Shown here: positions 13,327 to 27,123 of the stretch, piece after piece
Layout of the letters: each line of letters begins with the position of its first letter
Position numbering within the stretch: the stretch's first letter is position 1
Assembly: GCA_046759645.1 (NCBI GenBank)
Contig: JBHICO010000004.1
Span: 1 to 47,032 of the forward strand
Source of the DNA: Nitrososphaerales archaeon
GTDB lineage: Archaea > Thermoproteota > Nitrososphaeria > Nitrososphaerales > UBA213
DNA: 47,032 nucleotides
Reading direction: 5' to 3'
The notes under the pieces: generated by a model
The model's input: the letters and a program-made list of their open reading frames with translations, nothing else
Databases searched by the model: none
Told to the model about the DNA's origin: nothing
Made by a program: the position numbers and the translations under genes

Positions 13327-14778
13327 ATGCCATTTGAGAGCCTACGGGATTACGTTAAAGCTCTTGAAGGTTCAAATCAGCTCAAACGAGTAAAAGCCAA
13401 GATAAGTGTTGATCTGGAACTTGCAGAGATTTTGCGCAGGTTAATGTATAACAATGGCTCTGCTGTTCTATTTGAAAATGTTGAGGGTTACAATATGCCG
13501 GTGCTTGGCAATGCCTTCGGAACAACTGAACGTATGAAACTTGCACTGGATACTGATAACTTCGAGGATATAGGGAAGAGGATGGTAGAGCTCTCTAAGA
13601 TGGAATTACCTACTGGCATGTTAGACAAATTAAAAATGCTTCCGAAGCTATCTGAGATCGCGGATGCGGGTCCAAAAGTGGTCAGTAAAGGGTCTGTATC
13701 CGAAGTCTACGAAGATTCAAGTAAGGCATCACTATACAGTCTACCTGCCCTGAAATGCTGGCCTAAGGATGCTGGCAGGTTCATAACGTTCGGCTTGATA
13801 GTGACGAAGCATCCAGACACTGGAAATAGGAATCTTGGGGTCTACAGGATGCAGATAATAGATGACAAGAAAGCGATAATGCACTGGCAGATACACAAGC
13901 GTAGCGCACAACATTACCAGGTAGCAAAGGAGCAAAAGAAGAGGATGGAAGTTGCTGTAGTAATAGGGACTGACCCTACAACTGTTTTTTCTGCTGTTGC
14001 ACCTGTGCCGGAAGGGCTTGACAAGTATCTATTTTGTGGGATGGTAAGGAAGAAGGGATTGAAGCTGGTAAGATGTGAAAGTATAGACCTAGAGGTTCCT
14101 GCAAATACAGAGATTGTTTTGGAAGGCTATGTTGATCCTAATGATATAAGAATGGAGGGACCATTTGGTGACCACACAGGTTACTACACACCACAAGAAC
14201 CATACCCTACTTTCAACTTGACTGGTATAATGAGAAACGAAAATCCAATTTATCTTACCACGGTAGTTGGTAAACCCACGCTCGAGGATGCGTACATTGG
14301 AGGGGTAATAGAACGGTCGTTCTTGCCTTTAATACGCATGTTCCATCCTGAAATTATTGACTTTGCTATGCCACCAGCCGGTTGGTACCAAGGTCTTGCA
14401 ATCATATCAATAAAGAAACGATATCCAGGACAGGCGAAGAAGGTAATGATGGGCCTCTGGGGTTTAGGCCAGCTCTCTCTTACAAAGATATTCATTGTAG
14501 TCGATCATGATATTGACATTCACAACATCGATGACGTGATATGGGCAGTAACTACTAGGACTGACCCAAAGAGAGATATCATGATAATAGAAAATGCACC
14601 AACAGATACACTAGATCCATCATCACCGGTCTTGAATCTTGGCTCAAAACTTGGTATAGATGCCACTACAAAATGGAAGGAGGAAGGATTTGAAAGAGAA
14701 GTTCAGGAACTAGCTGTCGTTGATAATGAAACTAGAAGCCTTGTAGACCGGCGATGGCGTGAATATGGAATAGACTAG
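13327..14778 (+). CDS. ubiD: UbiD-family prFMN decarboxylase (menaquinone pathway, MqnL-type)
   Basis: NLGVYRMQ, EGPFGDHTGYY, DTLDPS, KLGIDAT. Confidence 0.92.
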   Translation: MPFESLRDYVKALEGSNQLKRVKAKISVDLELAEILRRLMYNNGSAVLFENVEGYNMPVLGNAFGTTERMKLALDTDNFEDIGKRMVELSKMELPTGMLDKLKMLPKLSEIADAGPKVVSKGSVSEVYEDSSKASLYSLPALKCWPKDAGRFITFGLIVTKHPDTGNRNLGVYRMQIIDDKKAIMHWQIHKRSAQHYQVAKEQKKRMEVAVVIGTDPTTVFSAVAPVPEGLDKYLFCGMVRKKGLKLVRCESIDLEVPANTEIVLEGYVDPNDIRMEGPFGDHTGYYTPQEPYPTFNLTGIMRNENPIYLTTVVGKPTLEDAYIGGVIERSFLPLIRMFHPEIIDFAMPPAGWYQGLAIISIKKRYPGQAKKVMMGLWGLGQLSLTKIFIVVDHDIDIHNIDDVIWAVTTRTDPKRDIMIIENAPTDTLDPSSPVLNLGSKLGIDATTKWKEEGFEREVQELAVVDNETRSLVDRRWREYGID

Positions 14779-21100: not shown

Positions 21101-21159
21101 CGATATTTTACATCAGAAGGATTAAATAAAGATGCTCGATAGAGTTCTGCCTGATAGAT

Positions 21160-23380
21160 ATGCCGCGTTACAAGTCAACACAGGAAGCATTAAAGATCAT
21201 AGGCAATAAGGACCAAATTCGAATGGTGTAAAGGTAGCTCCTTTAGCCCGAATAATTTTGGTGTTATAGCTCATGTAGATCATGGAAAGACTACAATGAG
21301 TGATAGCTTGCTTGCAGCTACAGGGATGATCAGTCCCTCTGTAGCGGGTGAAGCATTAGCATTAGATTACATGGATTTGGAACAGCAAAGACAGATGACA
21401 ATCAAGGCGGCTAACGTTACCTTGTACTATGAAGAGAATGGTAAACCTTATGTTATGAATATGATTGACACTCCAGGACACATAGATTTCACTGGAAGAG
21501 TGACAAGAAGTTTGAGGGCCATTGATGGTGCAGTAGTTGTTTGTGACTCTGTAGAAGGCGTCATGACCCAGACGGAAACTGTTACTAGGCAGGCACTTGA
21601 AGAGCGGGTAAGACCAGTTCTTTACGTCAACAAGATAGATCGTTTGGTTAAGGAATTAAGATTGACACCTGAAAAGATGCAAGAGTGGCTGGCTGGTATA
21701 ATTGGTGATTTTAACAGGCTGATTGATATTTACGCTGAACCTGAACTGAAGGACAAGTGGAAGGTAAACATTCAGAATGATACTGTATCATTTGGTTCAG
21801 CAAAGGATAGATGGGGTTTCAATGCTGGCATTGCAGCAAAGAAAGGTATCAACTTTAGTGATGTTTACGAGACATATACATCTGGAGATCCTAAAACATT
21901 AGCAGAGAAAGCTCCGCTACATGAAGCAATTTTGGGAATGGTTGTTAAACACCATCCGCCCCCACATGTTGCTCAGCAGTACAGAATTCCTAGAATATGG
22001 AAAGGAGATCTAAATTCGGAAATTGGGAAAGCATTGGTCGAGTGTGACGAAAACGGTCCCATTATCATGATGGTTACAACCATCGTAGTTGATCCGCAGG
22101 CAGGGCCTGTGGCAGTAGGAAGATTGTTTTCTGGAAAAATAAGTGACGGCGATGAAGTTTATTTAATCGATTCTAAGAGGAAAGAAAGGATCCAATCTGT
22201 TAACATGTTTATGGGTCCGTATAGGGAGCTAGTCAGTTCACTTGGTGCCGGTAACATACCTGCATTGTTAGGGCTAGAACATGCAAGAGCTGGGGAAACA
22301 ATAGCCACCGTACAAGGTGTTGTTGCATTCGAATCGATCAAGTATGTGTCTGAACCCGTTGTTACGGTCGCAGTAGAACCAAAACACCCAAAGGATTTAC
22401 CAAAACTGGTTGAAACATTGAGGAGGATCAGCATAGAAGATCCTAACCTCGTAGTAAAGATCAACGAAGAAAGTGGTGAGACTCTTATGGCTGGTATGGG
22501 AGTCTTACACTTGGAGATCGCAACCACATTGCTCCAACAAGCGGGACTAGAGATAGTTACATCACAGCCATTGATCAATTATAGAGAGACTGTAAGAGCA
22601 ACTGCAGGTCCAGTCATGGCCAAGTCACCAAACAGGCATAACAAGGTATTCATAAAAGCAGAACCACTGGCTGAAGACGTTATAGAGTTGATAAGGACCG
22701 GCAAGATAAATGAAAACATGGACCGGAAAGATATAGGAAAGGTTCTGCGTGAGAAGGGTTGGGACGCAGATGAAGCGAGAAACGTAGTGGCAATAGAAAG
22801 TGGAAACCTCTTTGTTGACGCAACAAAGGGTGTTCAGTATTTGCATGAATCGATGGACTCCATAAAATCTGGTTTTACAGATGTTATGATAAGTGGTCCG
22901 ATGGCGCAGGAGCATTGCAGAGGCATAAAGGTTGTTTTAGATCACTTCGTTCCGCATGAAGACCCTGCGCACAGAACTCTTGCACAATTGATGCCGGCCA
23001 GTAGAAGATCCATCATGGGCTCTATACTTACAGCTAATCCTGTCTTACTGGAGCCCGTACTTGGTATCGAAGTAAAATGCCCGGCAGATATGATTGGAAC
23101 CGTTGCTGGTATATTGTCTGGAAAGCGTGGAAAGTTACTGAACGTGGATCAGAAAGGTGTCGTCGCAATTGTGCAAGGCGAAATACCAGCATCCGAAACT
23201 TTTGACTTGTCAGAAGCTATGCGAGGAGGCACAGCGGGCAAGGCATTGTGGAACACTCACTTCAAGTTGTGGCAAGCTCTACCATCATCGCTTCTTTTGC
23301 AAATAATCACAGAAATAAGGAAGAGGAAGGGTTTGAATCCCGAGCCACCAAGACCAGATGAATTTATAGACAAAGACTAG
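21160..23380 (+). CDS. fusA: translation elongation factor 2 (aEF-2), spliced: join(21160..21223,21255..23380), 729 aa
   Basis: Exon 1 encodes MPRYKSTQEALKIIGNKDQIR; exon 2 continues NFGVIAHVDHGKTT, DTPGHIDF, NKID and the diphthamide loop HEDPAHR. The ORF-track version (from 21296) lacks the P-loop. Confidence 0.95.
21224..21254 (+). other. 31-nt bulge-helix-bulge (tRNA-type) intron in EF-2 mRNA
   Basis: Central helix UUCG(21218-21)/CGAA(21249-52), 3-nt bulges AAU and UAA, inner stem GGU/GCC plus UAAAGG/CCUUUA, exon-exon stem ACCAAA/UUUUGGU. Canonical cuts restore the frame. Confidence 0.88.
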
Positions 23381-23474: not shown

Positions 23475-24665
23475 ATGAAATTAGAGATACCAAGATTTAC
23501 TGAAAGGTTTGGCGCTGTAAGTTTGCATTCTGTTCAGAAAGTATACGAACTTGATTCTGGAGCTAAGCAAGAAGTATACCAGCCACCCCAAACGATCAGG
23601 AAAGTAGAGACAGATGAAGTAGAAAATATGGAGAGCAAACTTGCAATTGTGATCCCCATAAAGAACGAAAAATTAAAGATCTTTGAAGGTGTACTGAGTG
23701 GCATACCACACGACTGTTTTAACATAATAGTATCTAACAGCGATCGACATTCTGTTGACAGATTCAAGATGGAAAGGAGTGCTGTTGAGCAATACAACAG
23801 GTTTGTTGGTCGCGATTCTATAATTATTCATCAGAAAGACCCTGGATTAGGGGAGATAATGAAGGAATTGGAATACAATGACATGCTGGAGAACGGCACA
23901 GTTAGAAATGGCAAGGCCGAATCGATGATCATCGGTATGTTGTTGGCTAAAATGGTGGGCAAGGAATATGTTGGATTTATTGATGCAGATAATTATGTTC
24001 CAGGAGCAGTTAACGAATACGTAAAAATTTTTGCATCATGTTTCGTAATGGCAAACACGCCCTATACAATGTCAAGAATTTCTTGGGTATACAAGCCAAA
24101 AGTATCAGAAGGTGGAGGTCTTTATTTTCCCAAGTGGGGGCGAATATCCGAATACACCAATAATTACCTAAATTCTGTAGTATCGCATCACACAGGGTTT
24201 GAAACTGATATTTGTAGGACAGGCAATTCTGGGGAGCACGCAATGAGCATGAAGCTCGCAGAACTTCTTACATACACATCGGGATTTGCTATTGAACCAT
24301 ATGAGATAATGAACATATTAGAGGAGTTTGGAGGAACGACTTCAAGTAACCAAACTGAAGCTCTTGATAAAGGTGTTGAGATTTTCCAAGTGGAGACTAG
24401 AAATCCACATTTTCATGAGGAAAAGGGTGAAGAGCATCTGCGGGAAATGCTTCTCTGCTCCTTGGCTTCAATTTATAACAGTGGGATCTGTCCTCTCCCA
24501 TTGAAAGATAGAATCCTGATGGATCTGAGAACTAATACTCATTTGGGCCCCGGTGAAGAGCCACCGGAACTGCACAAGATACATTCCTTCAAATTTGTTG
24601 ATATCCATGCCTTTGAAAAATTGCTAAGAGAAAAGTCTTCAACAATGGCACAATTTCACCCATAA
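23475..24665 (+). CDS. mpgS: mannosyl-3-phosphoglycerate synthase (GT55)
   Basis: TERFGAV, VLSGIPH, VRNGKAE, GFIDADNY.PGAV.EY, WGRISE, ETRNPHFHE. Confidence 0.93.
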   Translation: MKLEIPRFTERFGAVSLHSVQKVYELDSGAKQEVYQPPQTIRKVETDEVENMESKLAIVIPIKNEKLKIFEGVLSGIPHDCFNIIVSNSDRHSVDRFKMERSAVEQYNRFVGRDSIIIHQKDPGLGEIMKELEYNDMLENGTVRNGKAESMIIGMLLAKMVGKEYVGFIDADNYVPGAVNEYVKIFASCFVMANTPYTMSRISWVYKPKVSEGGGLYFPKWGRISEYTNNYLNSVVSHHTGFETDICRTGNSGEHAMSMKLAELLTYTSGFAIEPYEIMNILEEFGGTTSSNQTEALDKGVEIFQVETRNPHFHEEKGEEHLREMLLCSLASIYNSGICPLPLKDRILMDLRTNTHLGPGEEPPELHKIHSFKFVDIHAFEKLLREKSSTMAQFHP

Positions 24666-24673
24666 TAGTAGCC

Positions 24674-25315
24674 TTGAACAAAAAACTTGTAGCATTTGAT
24701 ATGGACGGTACCCTGATCAATGGGAGATTGGTTTTTGCCCTTGGCGATAAGTTTGCCATGTCAGACAGGATTAGGAAAATAATGGGCAAGAATACGGATG
24801 GTCATCAAAAGTCAGCAGAGATAGCAAAACTATGGAAGGGCATAAAAGCTGATGAAGTTACCGAAGCAGTAAGACGTATACCTATTATGACAGGGGCCTC
24901 TGAAATAATTGGCGAATTCAAAAAACGTGGATATGTAATAGGCATAATAAGCGACAGCTACACATTGGCTACTGATCATATAATTAAACATTTCAAAATG
25001 GACTTTAACATCGCTAACGTATTGGAAGTGAAAGATGGTTTGCTGACAGGTAAAGTAAAGATGCCAATGGGATGGGAACAGATCAGTTGCTGGTGTAAGA
25101 ACTCTGTATGCAAGAGGTTTCACCTCGAAAGATCTGTACGATCTTTGAATATTCCGCTAAAAAATACTATTGCTATAGGCGATACTAGGAATGATCTATG
25201 TATGATTGAGAGAGCTGGCACAGGAATTGCATTCAACCCAAAGGATAACAAGATAATGGGCAATAAAATAATTGTAAAAGGACAAGATCTACGGAAAATA
25301 ATGCAATTTCTTTAA
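24674..25315 (+). CDS. HAD-IB phosphatase (SerB-like)
   Basis: FDMDGTL, IISDS, IGDTRND, GIAFNP. Confidence 0.85.
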   Translation: MNKKLVAFDMDGTLINGRLVFALGDKFAMSDRIRKIMGKNTDGHQKSAEIAKLWKGIKADEVTEAVRRIPIMTGASEIIGEFKKRGYVIGIISDSYTLATDHIIKHFKMDFNIANVLEVKDGLLTGKVKMPMGWEQISCWCKNSVCKRFHLERSVRSLNIPLKNTIAIGDTRNDLCMIERAGTGIAFNPKDNKIMGNKIIVKGQDLRKIMQFL

Positions 25316-25330
25316 TTTTTTCTTTTTGAA
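25316..25330 (+). terminator. T-rich archaeal terminator candidate
   Basis: TTTTTTCTTTTT directly after the HAD stop codon. Confidence 0.45.
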
Positions 25331-25458
25331 TTTTTGCCACATTAGTCATAAAAACTTATAACGGATAAATTTGTAGACTCCTACGAAGAGTAATTGGATG
25401 ATTTTGAACCGTTGCTGATGGGCTTCTCATCCATGAAATTTTGAGGTGAGAGTATGAA

Positions 25459-27123
25459 TTGTGTGGTATAGCAGGAGTGTTGAGTAAGCTAGGACATGAT
25501 ATCACGCCCCATGTAATGAATATGCTTTCCTGCATGGTCAACAGAGGACCTGATGGTGCAGGAGTAGCAGTTAAAAATTCTGTAGCATATTCCTACAAAC
25601 TGTCTGAGCTAGGACTGAACCAGTTCAATGGTGATATTGCACTTGGTCATACAAGGCTGGCAATAGTTGGAGGAACATGCGGTCTTCAGCCATTCAGGAG
25701 CTGCGATGGAAGGATATTACTCGAACACAATGGCGAAATATACAATTACAAAAAACTGAGGAAAGAACTTCAGGATTCACATCATTTTGGAACAAGAACT
25801 GATAGCGAGGTGATAGTCCACCTAATTGAGCAATACTATAATGGAGATCTGCTTAAAGCGGTAAAGAAGGCCCTACGGCGGTTGGATGGGGTGTATGCAA
25901 TAGCAATAAAGGATGACAAGAGCATTGTAATTGTTAGAGATAAACTAGGAATAAGGCAATTGTACTATGGAGAGAATGATGAACTCATAGCCTTTGCATC
26001 TGAAATGAAGGCATTATGGATGATCGGTCTTAAGAACGTTCATAGGGTAATGCCTGGCTTTGCTGTGCGCTTCTCTGATGGAAAGACGAAGATCGAGAAG
26101 CTTGCTGAAGCCCCCGTCCATCCAAGGGGAAGAAATGTGACGGACATGAGAACAGCAATCAAAATGTACAAGAAAGCCCTCTACAGAGCAGTTGAGAAGA
26201 GAATAGAGGATCTGAAGAAGGTAGGAATAATCTTCTCTGGTGGAATTGATAGTGTTCTCATAGCAAAGATAGCAAAGGATCTTGGCGTTCCCAATCTGTG
26301 CTGTTACACAGCTGGTCTGATAGGCTCCCACGACCTGAAGTATGCGCATGAAGTGGCGGAGAACTTGGGATTGGATCTAAAATCATGGGAACTTACAACG
26401 AGTGATATTGAATCAATGCTACCTAAAATAATTGAAGTTATTGAAGATACAAATGCTGGGCAGGTGGAAGTTGCGATACCAGTTTATGCTGCAGTCGCTC
26501 TTGCACATAAAGATAGACTGAAAGTCATGCTAGGAGGTCAGGGCGCTGATGAGCTATTCGGAGGATATCCATGGTACAGCAAGATCGTTGGTACGCAGGG
26601 ATACGATGAGTTTCATAAATGCCTGGTAAAGGATATTCTATACCTATACAAGGAATCATTTGAGCGTGAGGACAAGATCACAATGGCTCATAGCATAGAA
26701 TCAAGGATTCCCTTCTTAGATCCCCAAGTGATAAGGGTTGCGATGCGCATCGATCCAAGGCTCAAGATATTTGATGGTGATGACAATTTCGGAAAGCATG
26801 TGCATAGGGAACTTGCACTGGAGATAGGCATACCCAAGGCGATTGCCTTCAGACCCAAGGAAGCTGCTCAGCATGGGTCTGGAATACATGACATAATTGA
26901 CGTAATTGCAAGGAGCAAGGGTTTCACAAAAGAACTGGTTACAAAAGCTAATTACCATTCAGTATTATCTGGGAGGGAGAAGATAGGAAGTTCACAAAGA
27001 TACGGTTATCAATTTGGTGATGAAGATTTATGGATAGCTGAAGATCACGTACAAATGTATCTCGATCATTTGGCGCGTAAACACGGATTGATAGAACTTG
27101 AAAATGCTCACAGACTGATCTGA
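25459..27123 (+). CDS. asnB: asparagine synthetase, glutamine-hydrolysing
   Basis: N-terminal MCGIAG, RGPD, HNGEIYN, FSGGIDS, GQGADELFGGY, RIPFLD; GAGGTGA ribosome-binding site. Confidence 0.9.
   Translation: MCGIAGVLSKLGHDITPHVMNMLSCMVNRGPDGAGVAVKNSVAYSYKLSELGLNQFNGDIALGHTRLAIVGGTCGLQPFRSCDGRILLEHNGEIYNYKKLRKELQDSHHFGTRTDSEVIVHLIEQYYNGDLLKAVKKALRRLDGVYAIAIKDDKSIVIVRDKLGIRQLYYGENDELIAFASEMKALWMIGLKNVHRVMPGFAVRFSDGKTKIEKLAEAPVHPRGRNVTDMRTAIKMYKKALYRAVEKRIEDLKKVGIIFSGGIDSVLIAKIAKDLGVPNLCCYTAGLIGSHDLKYAHEVAENLGLDLKSWELTTSDIESMLPKIIEVIEDTNAGQVEVAIPVYAAVALAHKDRLKVMLGGQGADELFGGYPWYSKIVGTQGYDEFHKCLVKDILYLYKESFEREDKITMAHSIESRIPFLDPQVIRVAMRIDPRLKIFDGDDNFGKHVHRELALEIGIPKAIAFRPKEAAQHGSGIHDIIDVIARSKGFTKELVTKANYHSVLSGREKIGSSQRYGYQFGDEDLWIAEDHVQMYLDHLARKHGLIELENAHRLI

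Follow-up and report, generated by a model that had tools for sequence, protein, structure and literature searches.

A predicted tRNA-type intron interrupts the elongation factor 2 gene of an ammonia-oxidising archaeon and has counterparts in aIF5A and carB

Introduction

How can an essential, single-copy translation factor be made from a gene whose reading frame is broken shortly after its start? This question is raised by the gene for elongation factor 2 (EF-2) in a 47,032-nucleotide contig of a Nitrososphaerales archaeon (JBHICO010000004.1 of assembly GCA_046759645.1), the whole of which was analysed and is called the window here. EF-2 extends from position 21160 to 23380 of the window. Read from the ATG at 21160 it yields a peptide of 23 amino acids (aa) that terminates at TAA 21229-21231, and gene calling by program places the start of the long open reading frame (ORF; 694 aa) at Met 21296, 3' of the P-loop codons, so that its product lacks the P-loop. 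The original prediction, made from the letters of the window, had named these same two products of an unspliced message, and reading the frames confirmed them. It attributed the break to an insert of 31 nucleotides (nt) that is both frame-breaking and stop-containing, and proposed that EF-2 supply depends on splicing by EndA and RtcB and that more hidden mRNA introns exist in the lineage.

A precedent is the intron bounded by a bulge-helix-bulge (BHB) in the cbf5 pre-mRNA of Desulfurococcales and Sulfolobales, which measures 16-44 nt and whose splicing was shown according to the accessible text of Yokobori 2009 (PMC2738675); that text also refers to two works in which putative introns were predicted in other archaeal coding genes. 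The accessible part of a 2020 paper presents cbf5 as the only archaeal coding sequence with a BHB intron (PMC7714728).

The window is contig C4 of a genome, designated G000, of 1,629,264 bases in 163 contigs (97.6% complete). Families of the same order are designated f1, f8, f12 and so on, with G000 in f1, and single genomes and loci are given as G and L numbers. G000 encodes archaeal amoA and its nearest named EF-2 relatives are those of Nitrosocaldus (81%) and of Nitrososphaerales entries; the host is an ammonia-oxidising archaeon.

Results

The EF-2 insert has BHB geometry and its excision restores the frame

Excision of positions 21224-21254 joins the two parts of EF-2 into a single frame of 729 aa, with the same motif at the junction as in intronless EF-2 proteins. 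The registers 21222-21252 and 21223-21253 are equivalent. Canonical BHB cleavage takes place after the second base of each bulge. In the window, a 4-bp UUCG/CGAA helix is flanked by two bulges of 3 nt each, 21222-21224 (AAU) and 21253-21255 (UAA), and cutting behind the second base of both removes precisely 21224-21254 and restores the coding sequence. An inner hairpin and an exon-exon helix complete the structure, and the folding energy of the region beats that of 199 of 200 shuffled sequences (z -2.38). As claimed originally, the insert breaks the frame and contains stops: three in-frame stops were found within it (21229, 21235 and 21244), and a fourth spans its 3' end.

A relaxed scan of G000 returned 88,551 BHB-like sites, of which only two, EF-2 included, improved the alignment score by at least 30 on excision; the insert is therefore not a chance BHB. 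Nor is it an assembly error, since inserts at the same site were found in 8/8 other genomes of the family and in 40 metagenome stretches. Rfam models gave no family match for the insert, the one sub-threshold match lying outside the intron. By all features tested, all of them read from sequence, the EF-2 insert is a real mRNA intron of the cbf5 type, and we predict that it is removed by splicing.

The EF-2 intron is conserved, covaries and has neighbours at other sites

The start of EF-2 was read in 35 genomes. It carries an intron at the G000 site in 19 and is uninterrupted in 9; in 2 an intron lies one base downstream (CAGG/CCUG), and in 4 it interrupts the codon for the P-loop lysine (ACGG/CCGU; CCGA in a variant with one mismatch). 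That lysine is the intron site of f5 and f14, and G011 (L019/L249) carries there an insertion that we take to be intein-like from intein hallmarks. The exact intron pattern, which detects the G000 site and not neighbouring ones, matched 27 of 401 genomes of the order (f1, 8/8; f8, 9/11; f13, 4/4; f18, 2/2) and was absent from its three largest families (f12, 0/112; f15, 0/112; f9, 0/97). Among 80 named loci, 10 had an intron (9 of them at the G000 site), 59 were contiguous and 11 gave no automatic call. The named loci with the same-site intron are mostly titled Bathyarchaeia and have the helix UCCG/CGGA; in the central helix of 4 Bathyarchaeia sequences a U-A pair is replaced by C-G, a double change.

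In total, 56 distinct same-site introns of 26-50 nt were collected, whose lengths leave remainders of 1, 0 and 2 on division by three in 36, 15 and 5 cases, respectively. Covariation was analysed in the 36 of them that measure 26-31 nt, with a model drawn from the window sequence and with aligned kin that are not independent. The predicted pairs were formed in 95.7% of cells, 5 of 13 pairs showed double changes, and the central helix was paired in 100% of the sequences. None of 500 shuffles matched this result, and slid partners were 25-54% paired. The exon-exon duplex averaged -13.3 kcal/mol in sequences with the intron (n=44) vs -6.0 kcal/mol in those without (n=66), kin again not being independent.

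Three further intron sites were observed within 12 codons in the EF-2 start region, represented by L021, L027, L244, L245 and L096, by L024 and L025, and by L097, one of the 11 named loci without an automatic call, whose stop-bearing insert of 30 nt occupies a fourth EF-2 site. Each of these sites has its own complementary central helix. On this comparison of sequences, the EF-2 start region is a hotspot for independent insertions. The N-terminal EF-2 matches of ten genomes from other families of the phylum (G407, G456, G463, G436, G449, G435, G477, G442, G431 and G459) are disrupted by internal stops or lack the first 20 residues, which suggests more introns in the same region. In addition, L043, a contig titled Acidiferrales bacterium, encodes an archaeal-type EF-2 with a Bathyarchaeia-style intron and is probably mis-binned.

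Two further coding sequences, aIF5A and carB, carry predicted BHB introns

The genome-wide BHB scan that the original prediction proposed revealed two more interrupted coding sequences, so the EF-2 intron is not an isolated case. The first scans used G019 as reference (1.60 of its 1.62 Mb), and 1,190 reference frames were matched at E <=1e-8. The largest gains on excision were 93 for aIF5A and 60 for EF-2, the third row (25) being another register of aIF5A. The aIF5A insert (L233) lies on the minus strand at C41:4086-4107 of G000, measures 22 nt and has the helix CUGG/CCAG. It divides the lysine codon of the hypusine motif, presumably that of the modified residue itself. This intron is found in 9/9 f1 and 3/3 f8 genomes and is absent in the remaining 29 of 41.

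The second insert, in carB (C61:1703-1723 of G000; L225:1570-1590), is 21 nt long, in frame, contains TAA and has the helix GGUG/CGCC. It had been missed by the first BHB scan, with its outer stem of 1 bp and an interrupted reference. It occurs in 18 of 30 loci, including 9/9 of f1, and is absent in 12 of 30, all 3 f8 loci among them. In EF-2, aIF5A and carB alike, cuts predicted from structure alone restore a conserved motif, and the introns, at codons 22, 35 and 25/26, all lie within the first 105 coding bases. The three occur together only in f1; f8 has those of EF-2 and aIF5A without that of carB, and G019, G022 and G036 have that of carB only.

A wider scan of junctions, with G019 and the first 0.8 of 1.58 Mb of G015 as references, covered 161,781 BHB-like sites and 70,767 disruptive junctions. 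Once sites in intact frames were removed 68 survived, with carB (78), aIF5A (65) and EF-2 (58) on top. The fourth candidate (55) joins two adjacent genes, and six further candidates were intact genes on inspection, which left the remaining scores (<=37) outside it. A break scan independent of structure gave 259 candidates from 1,190 genes; it found aIF5A and missed EF-2 and carB, which are its false negatives. The other top breaks that it listed comprised two deletions (C13), a split membrane protein gene (C55) and cases of neighbouring genes (C28, C12 and C3), none with a supported BHB; the inspection left out the middle ranks (gain ~16-20). A reference-free scan returned 60 candidates, the known three included, the other 57 being without homology support.

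Overall, 1,217 of 1,768 frames of at least 80 aa had a reference homologue, and about 30% of frames, exons shorter than 6 codons, introns longer than 100 nt and leaders fell outside the coverage. Beyond EF-2, aIF5A and carB, no supported intron was found among about 1,200 comparable genes of G000. The claim of more hidden mRNA introns thus stood in that two were added, and needs correction in that the number is small, three rather than many. No interruption was found in cbf5, EF-1alpha or rnhB of G000, and pcm had no clear orthologue in it.

Two observations from these scans concern other genes. On C13, near 4786 and near 14299, frame-breaking deletions without a BHB affect a shikimate dehydrogenase-like and a nucleotidyltransferase-like gene, respectively, and are either assembly errors or decay. 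On the minus strand of C55, near 590, a membrane protein gene is split relative to its G019 homologue by a stop and a frame change, also without a BHB.

In-frame stops are in excess within the introns

All 56 distinct same-site EF-2 introns contain a stop in the frame of exon 1, vs 20.2 expected when the variable part is shuffled; in the other two frames 8 and 17 bear stops, vs 20.7 and 20.5 expected. The stop stands at the third codon in 45 of the 56 (6 TAA, 22 TAG and 17 TGA) and at codons 5-7 in 11. With the introns collapsed to 23 clusters, which are still related to each other, the excess has a rough chance of 10^-11.5. In-frame stops were likewise found in 10 of 11 aIF5A introns (2.5 expected) and in 12 of 13 carB introns (5.1 expected), the stop-free exception in each being a frameshifting intron. 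In one compared set, 18/18 introns whose length is a multiple of three carry an in-frame stop. These counts point to selection for in-frame stops, which suggests that ribosomes do meet the unspliced message, at least sometimes.

G000 encodes the components of tRNA-type splicing

Typing of the EndA subunits, called for in the original prediction, gave two EndA-family genes in G000, of 203 and 191 aa. The 203-aa protein aligns over its full length to crenarchaeal catalytic subunits (best PDB match 3p1z_B, E 5.5e-42) and retains the Tyr/His/Lys catalytic positions and a K-P-K loop, a feature tied to relaxed EndA substrates in the accessible text of PMC12397907. The 191-aa protein also matches beta-subunit models, and we infer an (alpha-beta)2 tetramer. 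Of 13 genomes, 11 had two copies; the other two are 76% and 84% complete. RtcB is intact in G000.

Some tRNA genes of G000 have introns at non-canonical places, by a crude mapping in which 12 of 25 anchors gave no clear call. Among them, a tRNA-Glu gene (C107, ~794-880) has a 15-nt intron in its T-loop, which ARAGORN missed as an intron, with the helix UUCA/UGAA and the BHB register of the EF-2 intron. The suggested comparison of the 31-mer with the tRNA introns of G000 gave no sequence match, and none of the three mRNA introns resembles anything elsewhere in the genome (best 13 nt, E 0.38).

Annotation passes over the interruption

The original prediction had expected automated annotation to call such genes truncated or pseudogenes, and mostly it does not. 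Annotation raises no flag because the 694-aa frame without the P-loop still passes the EF-2 cut-off (837 bits vs 738 for TIGR00490). Among the 120 best public homologues, 34 are contiguous. In the other 86 the N-terminus is absent or wrong: 71 begin no earlier than this Met, although some of these may be cut for another cause, and in 15 the N-terminus is false.

Features and neighbourhood of the EF-2 locus

The coordinates of the EF-2 locus are collected in Table 1. Its promoter likely leaves EF-2 a leader of only about 7-9 nt, where we assume the promoter role and the start site from the archaeal consensus. Downstream of EF-2 (23475-27123) lie genes for a mannosyl-3-phosphoglycerate synthase and a SerB-like phosphatase and an asparagine synthase-like gene, and no ribosomal protein genes. 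The diphthamide loop of EF-2 (22955-23000) reads H-R-T, as in 110 of the 120 best homologues, the usual loop being, as we take it, H-R-G; G000 also encodes a Dph2-family gene.

Table 1. Predicted features of the EF-2 locus in window coordinates
Feature	Position	Strand	Evidence
Likely archaeal promoter: purine-rich stretch resembling a B recognition element, and TATA-like box (21122-21128)	21114-21128	+	Kept in 9/9 family loci and one f8 locus
EF-2 exon 1: 21 codons and 1 nt of an Asn codon	21160-21223	+	Agrees with the N-terminus of intronless EF-2
Outer exon-exon helix, 5' arm; partner 21256-21262, one bulged base	21212-21217	+	Fold; 93% of cells paired in 36 sequences
BHB central helix, 5' strand UUCG; partner 21249-21252	21218-21221	+	Paired in 36/36 sequences
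Predicted BHB-type intron, 31 nt, hairpin-forming, frame-breaking	21224-21254	+	Same-site inserts of 26-50 nt, 56 distinct sequences
First in-frame stop of the unspliced message, third codon past the junction	21229-21231	+	TAA
BHB central helix, 3' strand CGAA, followed by the 3-nt bulge 21253-21255	21249-21252	+	
EF-2 exon 2 through the stop codon; P-loop codons 21269-21292; false start Met 21296	21255-23380	+	

Discussion

The sequences compared here indicate that the EF-2, aIF5A and carB messages of G000 likely need tRNA-type splicing to yield protein. For EF-2, a single-copy gene in a genome with EndA and RtcB, dependence on splicing, as originally proposed, is the best reading. We think it probable that the EF-2 pre-mRNA is matured routinely by these enzymes and carries a safety stop, and that it is not subject to a dedicated switch. 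EndA would excise the 31-nt insert and RtcB would rejoin the exons, while the conserved early stop would be a safety catch: a ribosome on unspliced message would terminate within a few codons of entering the intron, which would free the RNA to refold and avoid a faulty product. The introns may persist because they are placed in motifs that tolerate no loss other than an exact one. Their patchiness favours routine maturation, since the carB intron is missing in 12 of 30 loci and that of aIF5A in 29 of 41 genomes.

Several observations weigh against this account. Elongation factors make up two of the three interrupted genes and all three introns are 5'-proximal, a pattern not expected if the introns were purely neutral, and their long retention, with the same site used in Bathyarchaeia, could reflect a function. 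The minimum-energy fold from ViennaRNA has the central helix open, and the helix is present in about 45% of the ensemble. Finally, 34 of 36 introns of remainder 1 leave the frame of exon 2 free of stops across the insert, somewhat more than the 28.6 expected, which gives room for some frameshifting.

A regulated gate, in which EndA and RtcB splice a tuned fraction of the message, seems to us unlikely, though it is the strongest rival. In one form, the one originally suggested, EndA/RtcB capacity would limit EF-2, aIF5A and CarB jointly with tRNA and rRNA maturation; in another, ribosomes on the short exon 1 would melt the BHB, and slow elongation would favour splicing and raise EF-2 and aIF5A. 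It fits the obligatory splicing of a single-copy EF-2, the position of all three introns near the 5' end, in carB and in the genes of two elongation factors, the marginal predicted stability of the central helix and the short leaders. A role as negative regulator was proposed for the cbf5 intron in the accessible text of PMC2738675, and HVO_1309 drops under endA repression according to that of PMC7714728. Selection for early stops implies ribosomes reaching unspliced introns, which suits a gate, but damage control accounts for the stops equally well; stop selection is compatible with both and does not discriminate. Against a gate, whole families do without each of the three introns, the EF-2 intron pattern being absent from 112/112, 112/112 and 97/97 genomes of the order's three largest, the three co-occur in f1 only, and EF-1alpha, cbf5 and rnhB of G000 are uninterrupted.

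Less probable still is a full translation-sensing circuit, in which ribosomes in the short exon 1 of EF-2 and aIF5A (and carB) would melt the BHB and leave at the early stop, EndA splicing only when elongation or ribosome loading slackens. If true, cells would set their supply of elongation factors by a feedback that runs via the tRNA-splicing machinery, in what would be the archaeal equivalent of attenuation and of regulated splicing of the IRE1/RtcB type.

Translational recoding, with a frameshift or hop at the early stop that would make splicing unneeded, is very improbable. The conserved stop beside a hairpin resembles recoding sites such as those of RF2 and T4 gene 60, and the open exon-2 frame noted above would suit it. 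However, 15 of the 56 inserts have a length divisible by three and contain an in-frame stop, 5 would require a different shift, the codon-stop contexts number 28 without a common slippery site, and the window has no matched take-off and landing codons. The inserted peptides would moreover be unconserved, and in aIF5A the insert splits the modified lysine codon itself. An assembly error or pseudogene, for which one could cite the 163 contigs and other frame breaks in this assembly, two of them on C13, has next to no probability and is rejected on conservation, EF-2 being essential and single-copy and the insert recurring, with covarying structure, in 27/401 genomes and 40 metagenome stretches.

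As to origin, we consider it possible, though only tentatively, that a tRNA T-loop intron moved to a site mimicking a T-loop or that a homing-endonuclease intron shrank to the present insert. The last six bases of exon 1, TTCGAA, resemble a T-loop, and the T-loop intron of the C107 tRNA-Glu (15 nt) shares its register; transposition among tRNAs has been reported for Thermoproteales, as cited in the accessible text of bioRxiv 10.64898/2026.10.13.758758. On the other hand, a match of 4-6 nt has little power, and the lack of similarity elsewhere in G000 noted above speaks against this source. A homing remnant was proposed for the cbf5 intron (accessible text of PMC2738675), and the intein-like insertion of G011 sits at the P-loop lysine site of the f5/f14 intron; but G000 (97.6% complete) showed no LAGLIDADG_1 or _3 gene in a search confined to those families, no long form of the intron was seen, the insert is only 31 nt, and the EF-2 neighbours are the mannosyl-3-phosphoglycerate synthase gene and short unknown ORFs, with no endonuclease ORF. 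Viral pattern matches were due to chance, 0/60 encoding EF-2.

The introns are likely processed by the same mechanism as that of cbf5. As described in the accessible text on cbf5, both cases involve short BHB-bounded inserts (17-50 nt here) at a critical conserved codon of a coding sequence, variable in length and lost in particular lineages, together with a hetero-oligomeric EndA and omission by annotation. Unlike cbf5, which is intact in G000, the introns described here affect other genes in another class of archaea, number three per genome and include essential translation factors; splicing is demonstrated for cbf5 in that text and predicted here. HVO_1309 of Haloferax volcanii has a BHB intron in its 5' untranslated region that EndA processes in vitro and in vivo (accessible text of PMC7714728). 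It shares with our cases a BHB intron in an mRNA, and its expression needs endA, but its intron lies in the leader and its enzyme is of a different type. Non-canonical BHB introns of archaeal tRNA and rRNA have the same geometry and presumably use the same enzymes, whereas the introns reported here sit in an mRNA under ribosome traffic, harbour no homing endonuclease and share no sequence with them. Our literature search, which left out subscription papers and supplements, so that an earlier prediction may exist, found no paper on an intron in archaeal EF-2, aIF5A or carB, and a term search of the accessible text of PMC10811736 did not return "intron".

Many of the public EF-2 entries that serve as phylogenetic markers carry an unnoticed error at the N-terminus. 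In one genome, three core proteins likely depend on tRNA-type splicing, and the introns span ammonia-oxidising archaea and Bathyarchaeia. The stop excess is the first sign in this set of translational selection on the unspliced message, and the presence of introns in three genes at once makes the purpose of archaeal mRNA introns testable.
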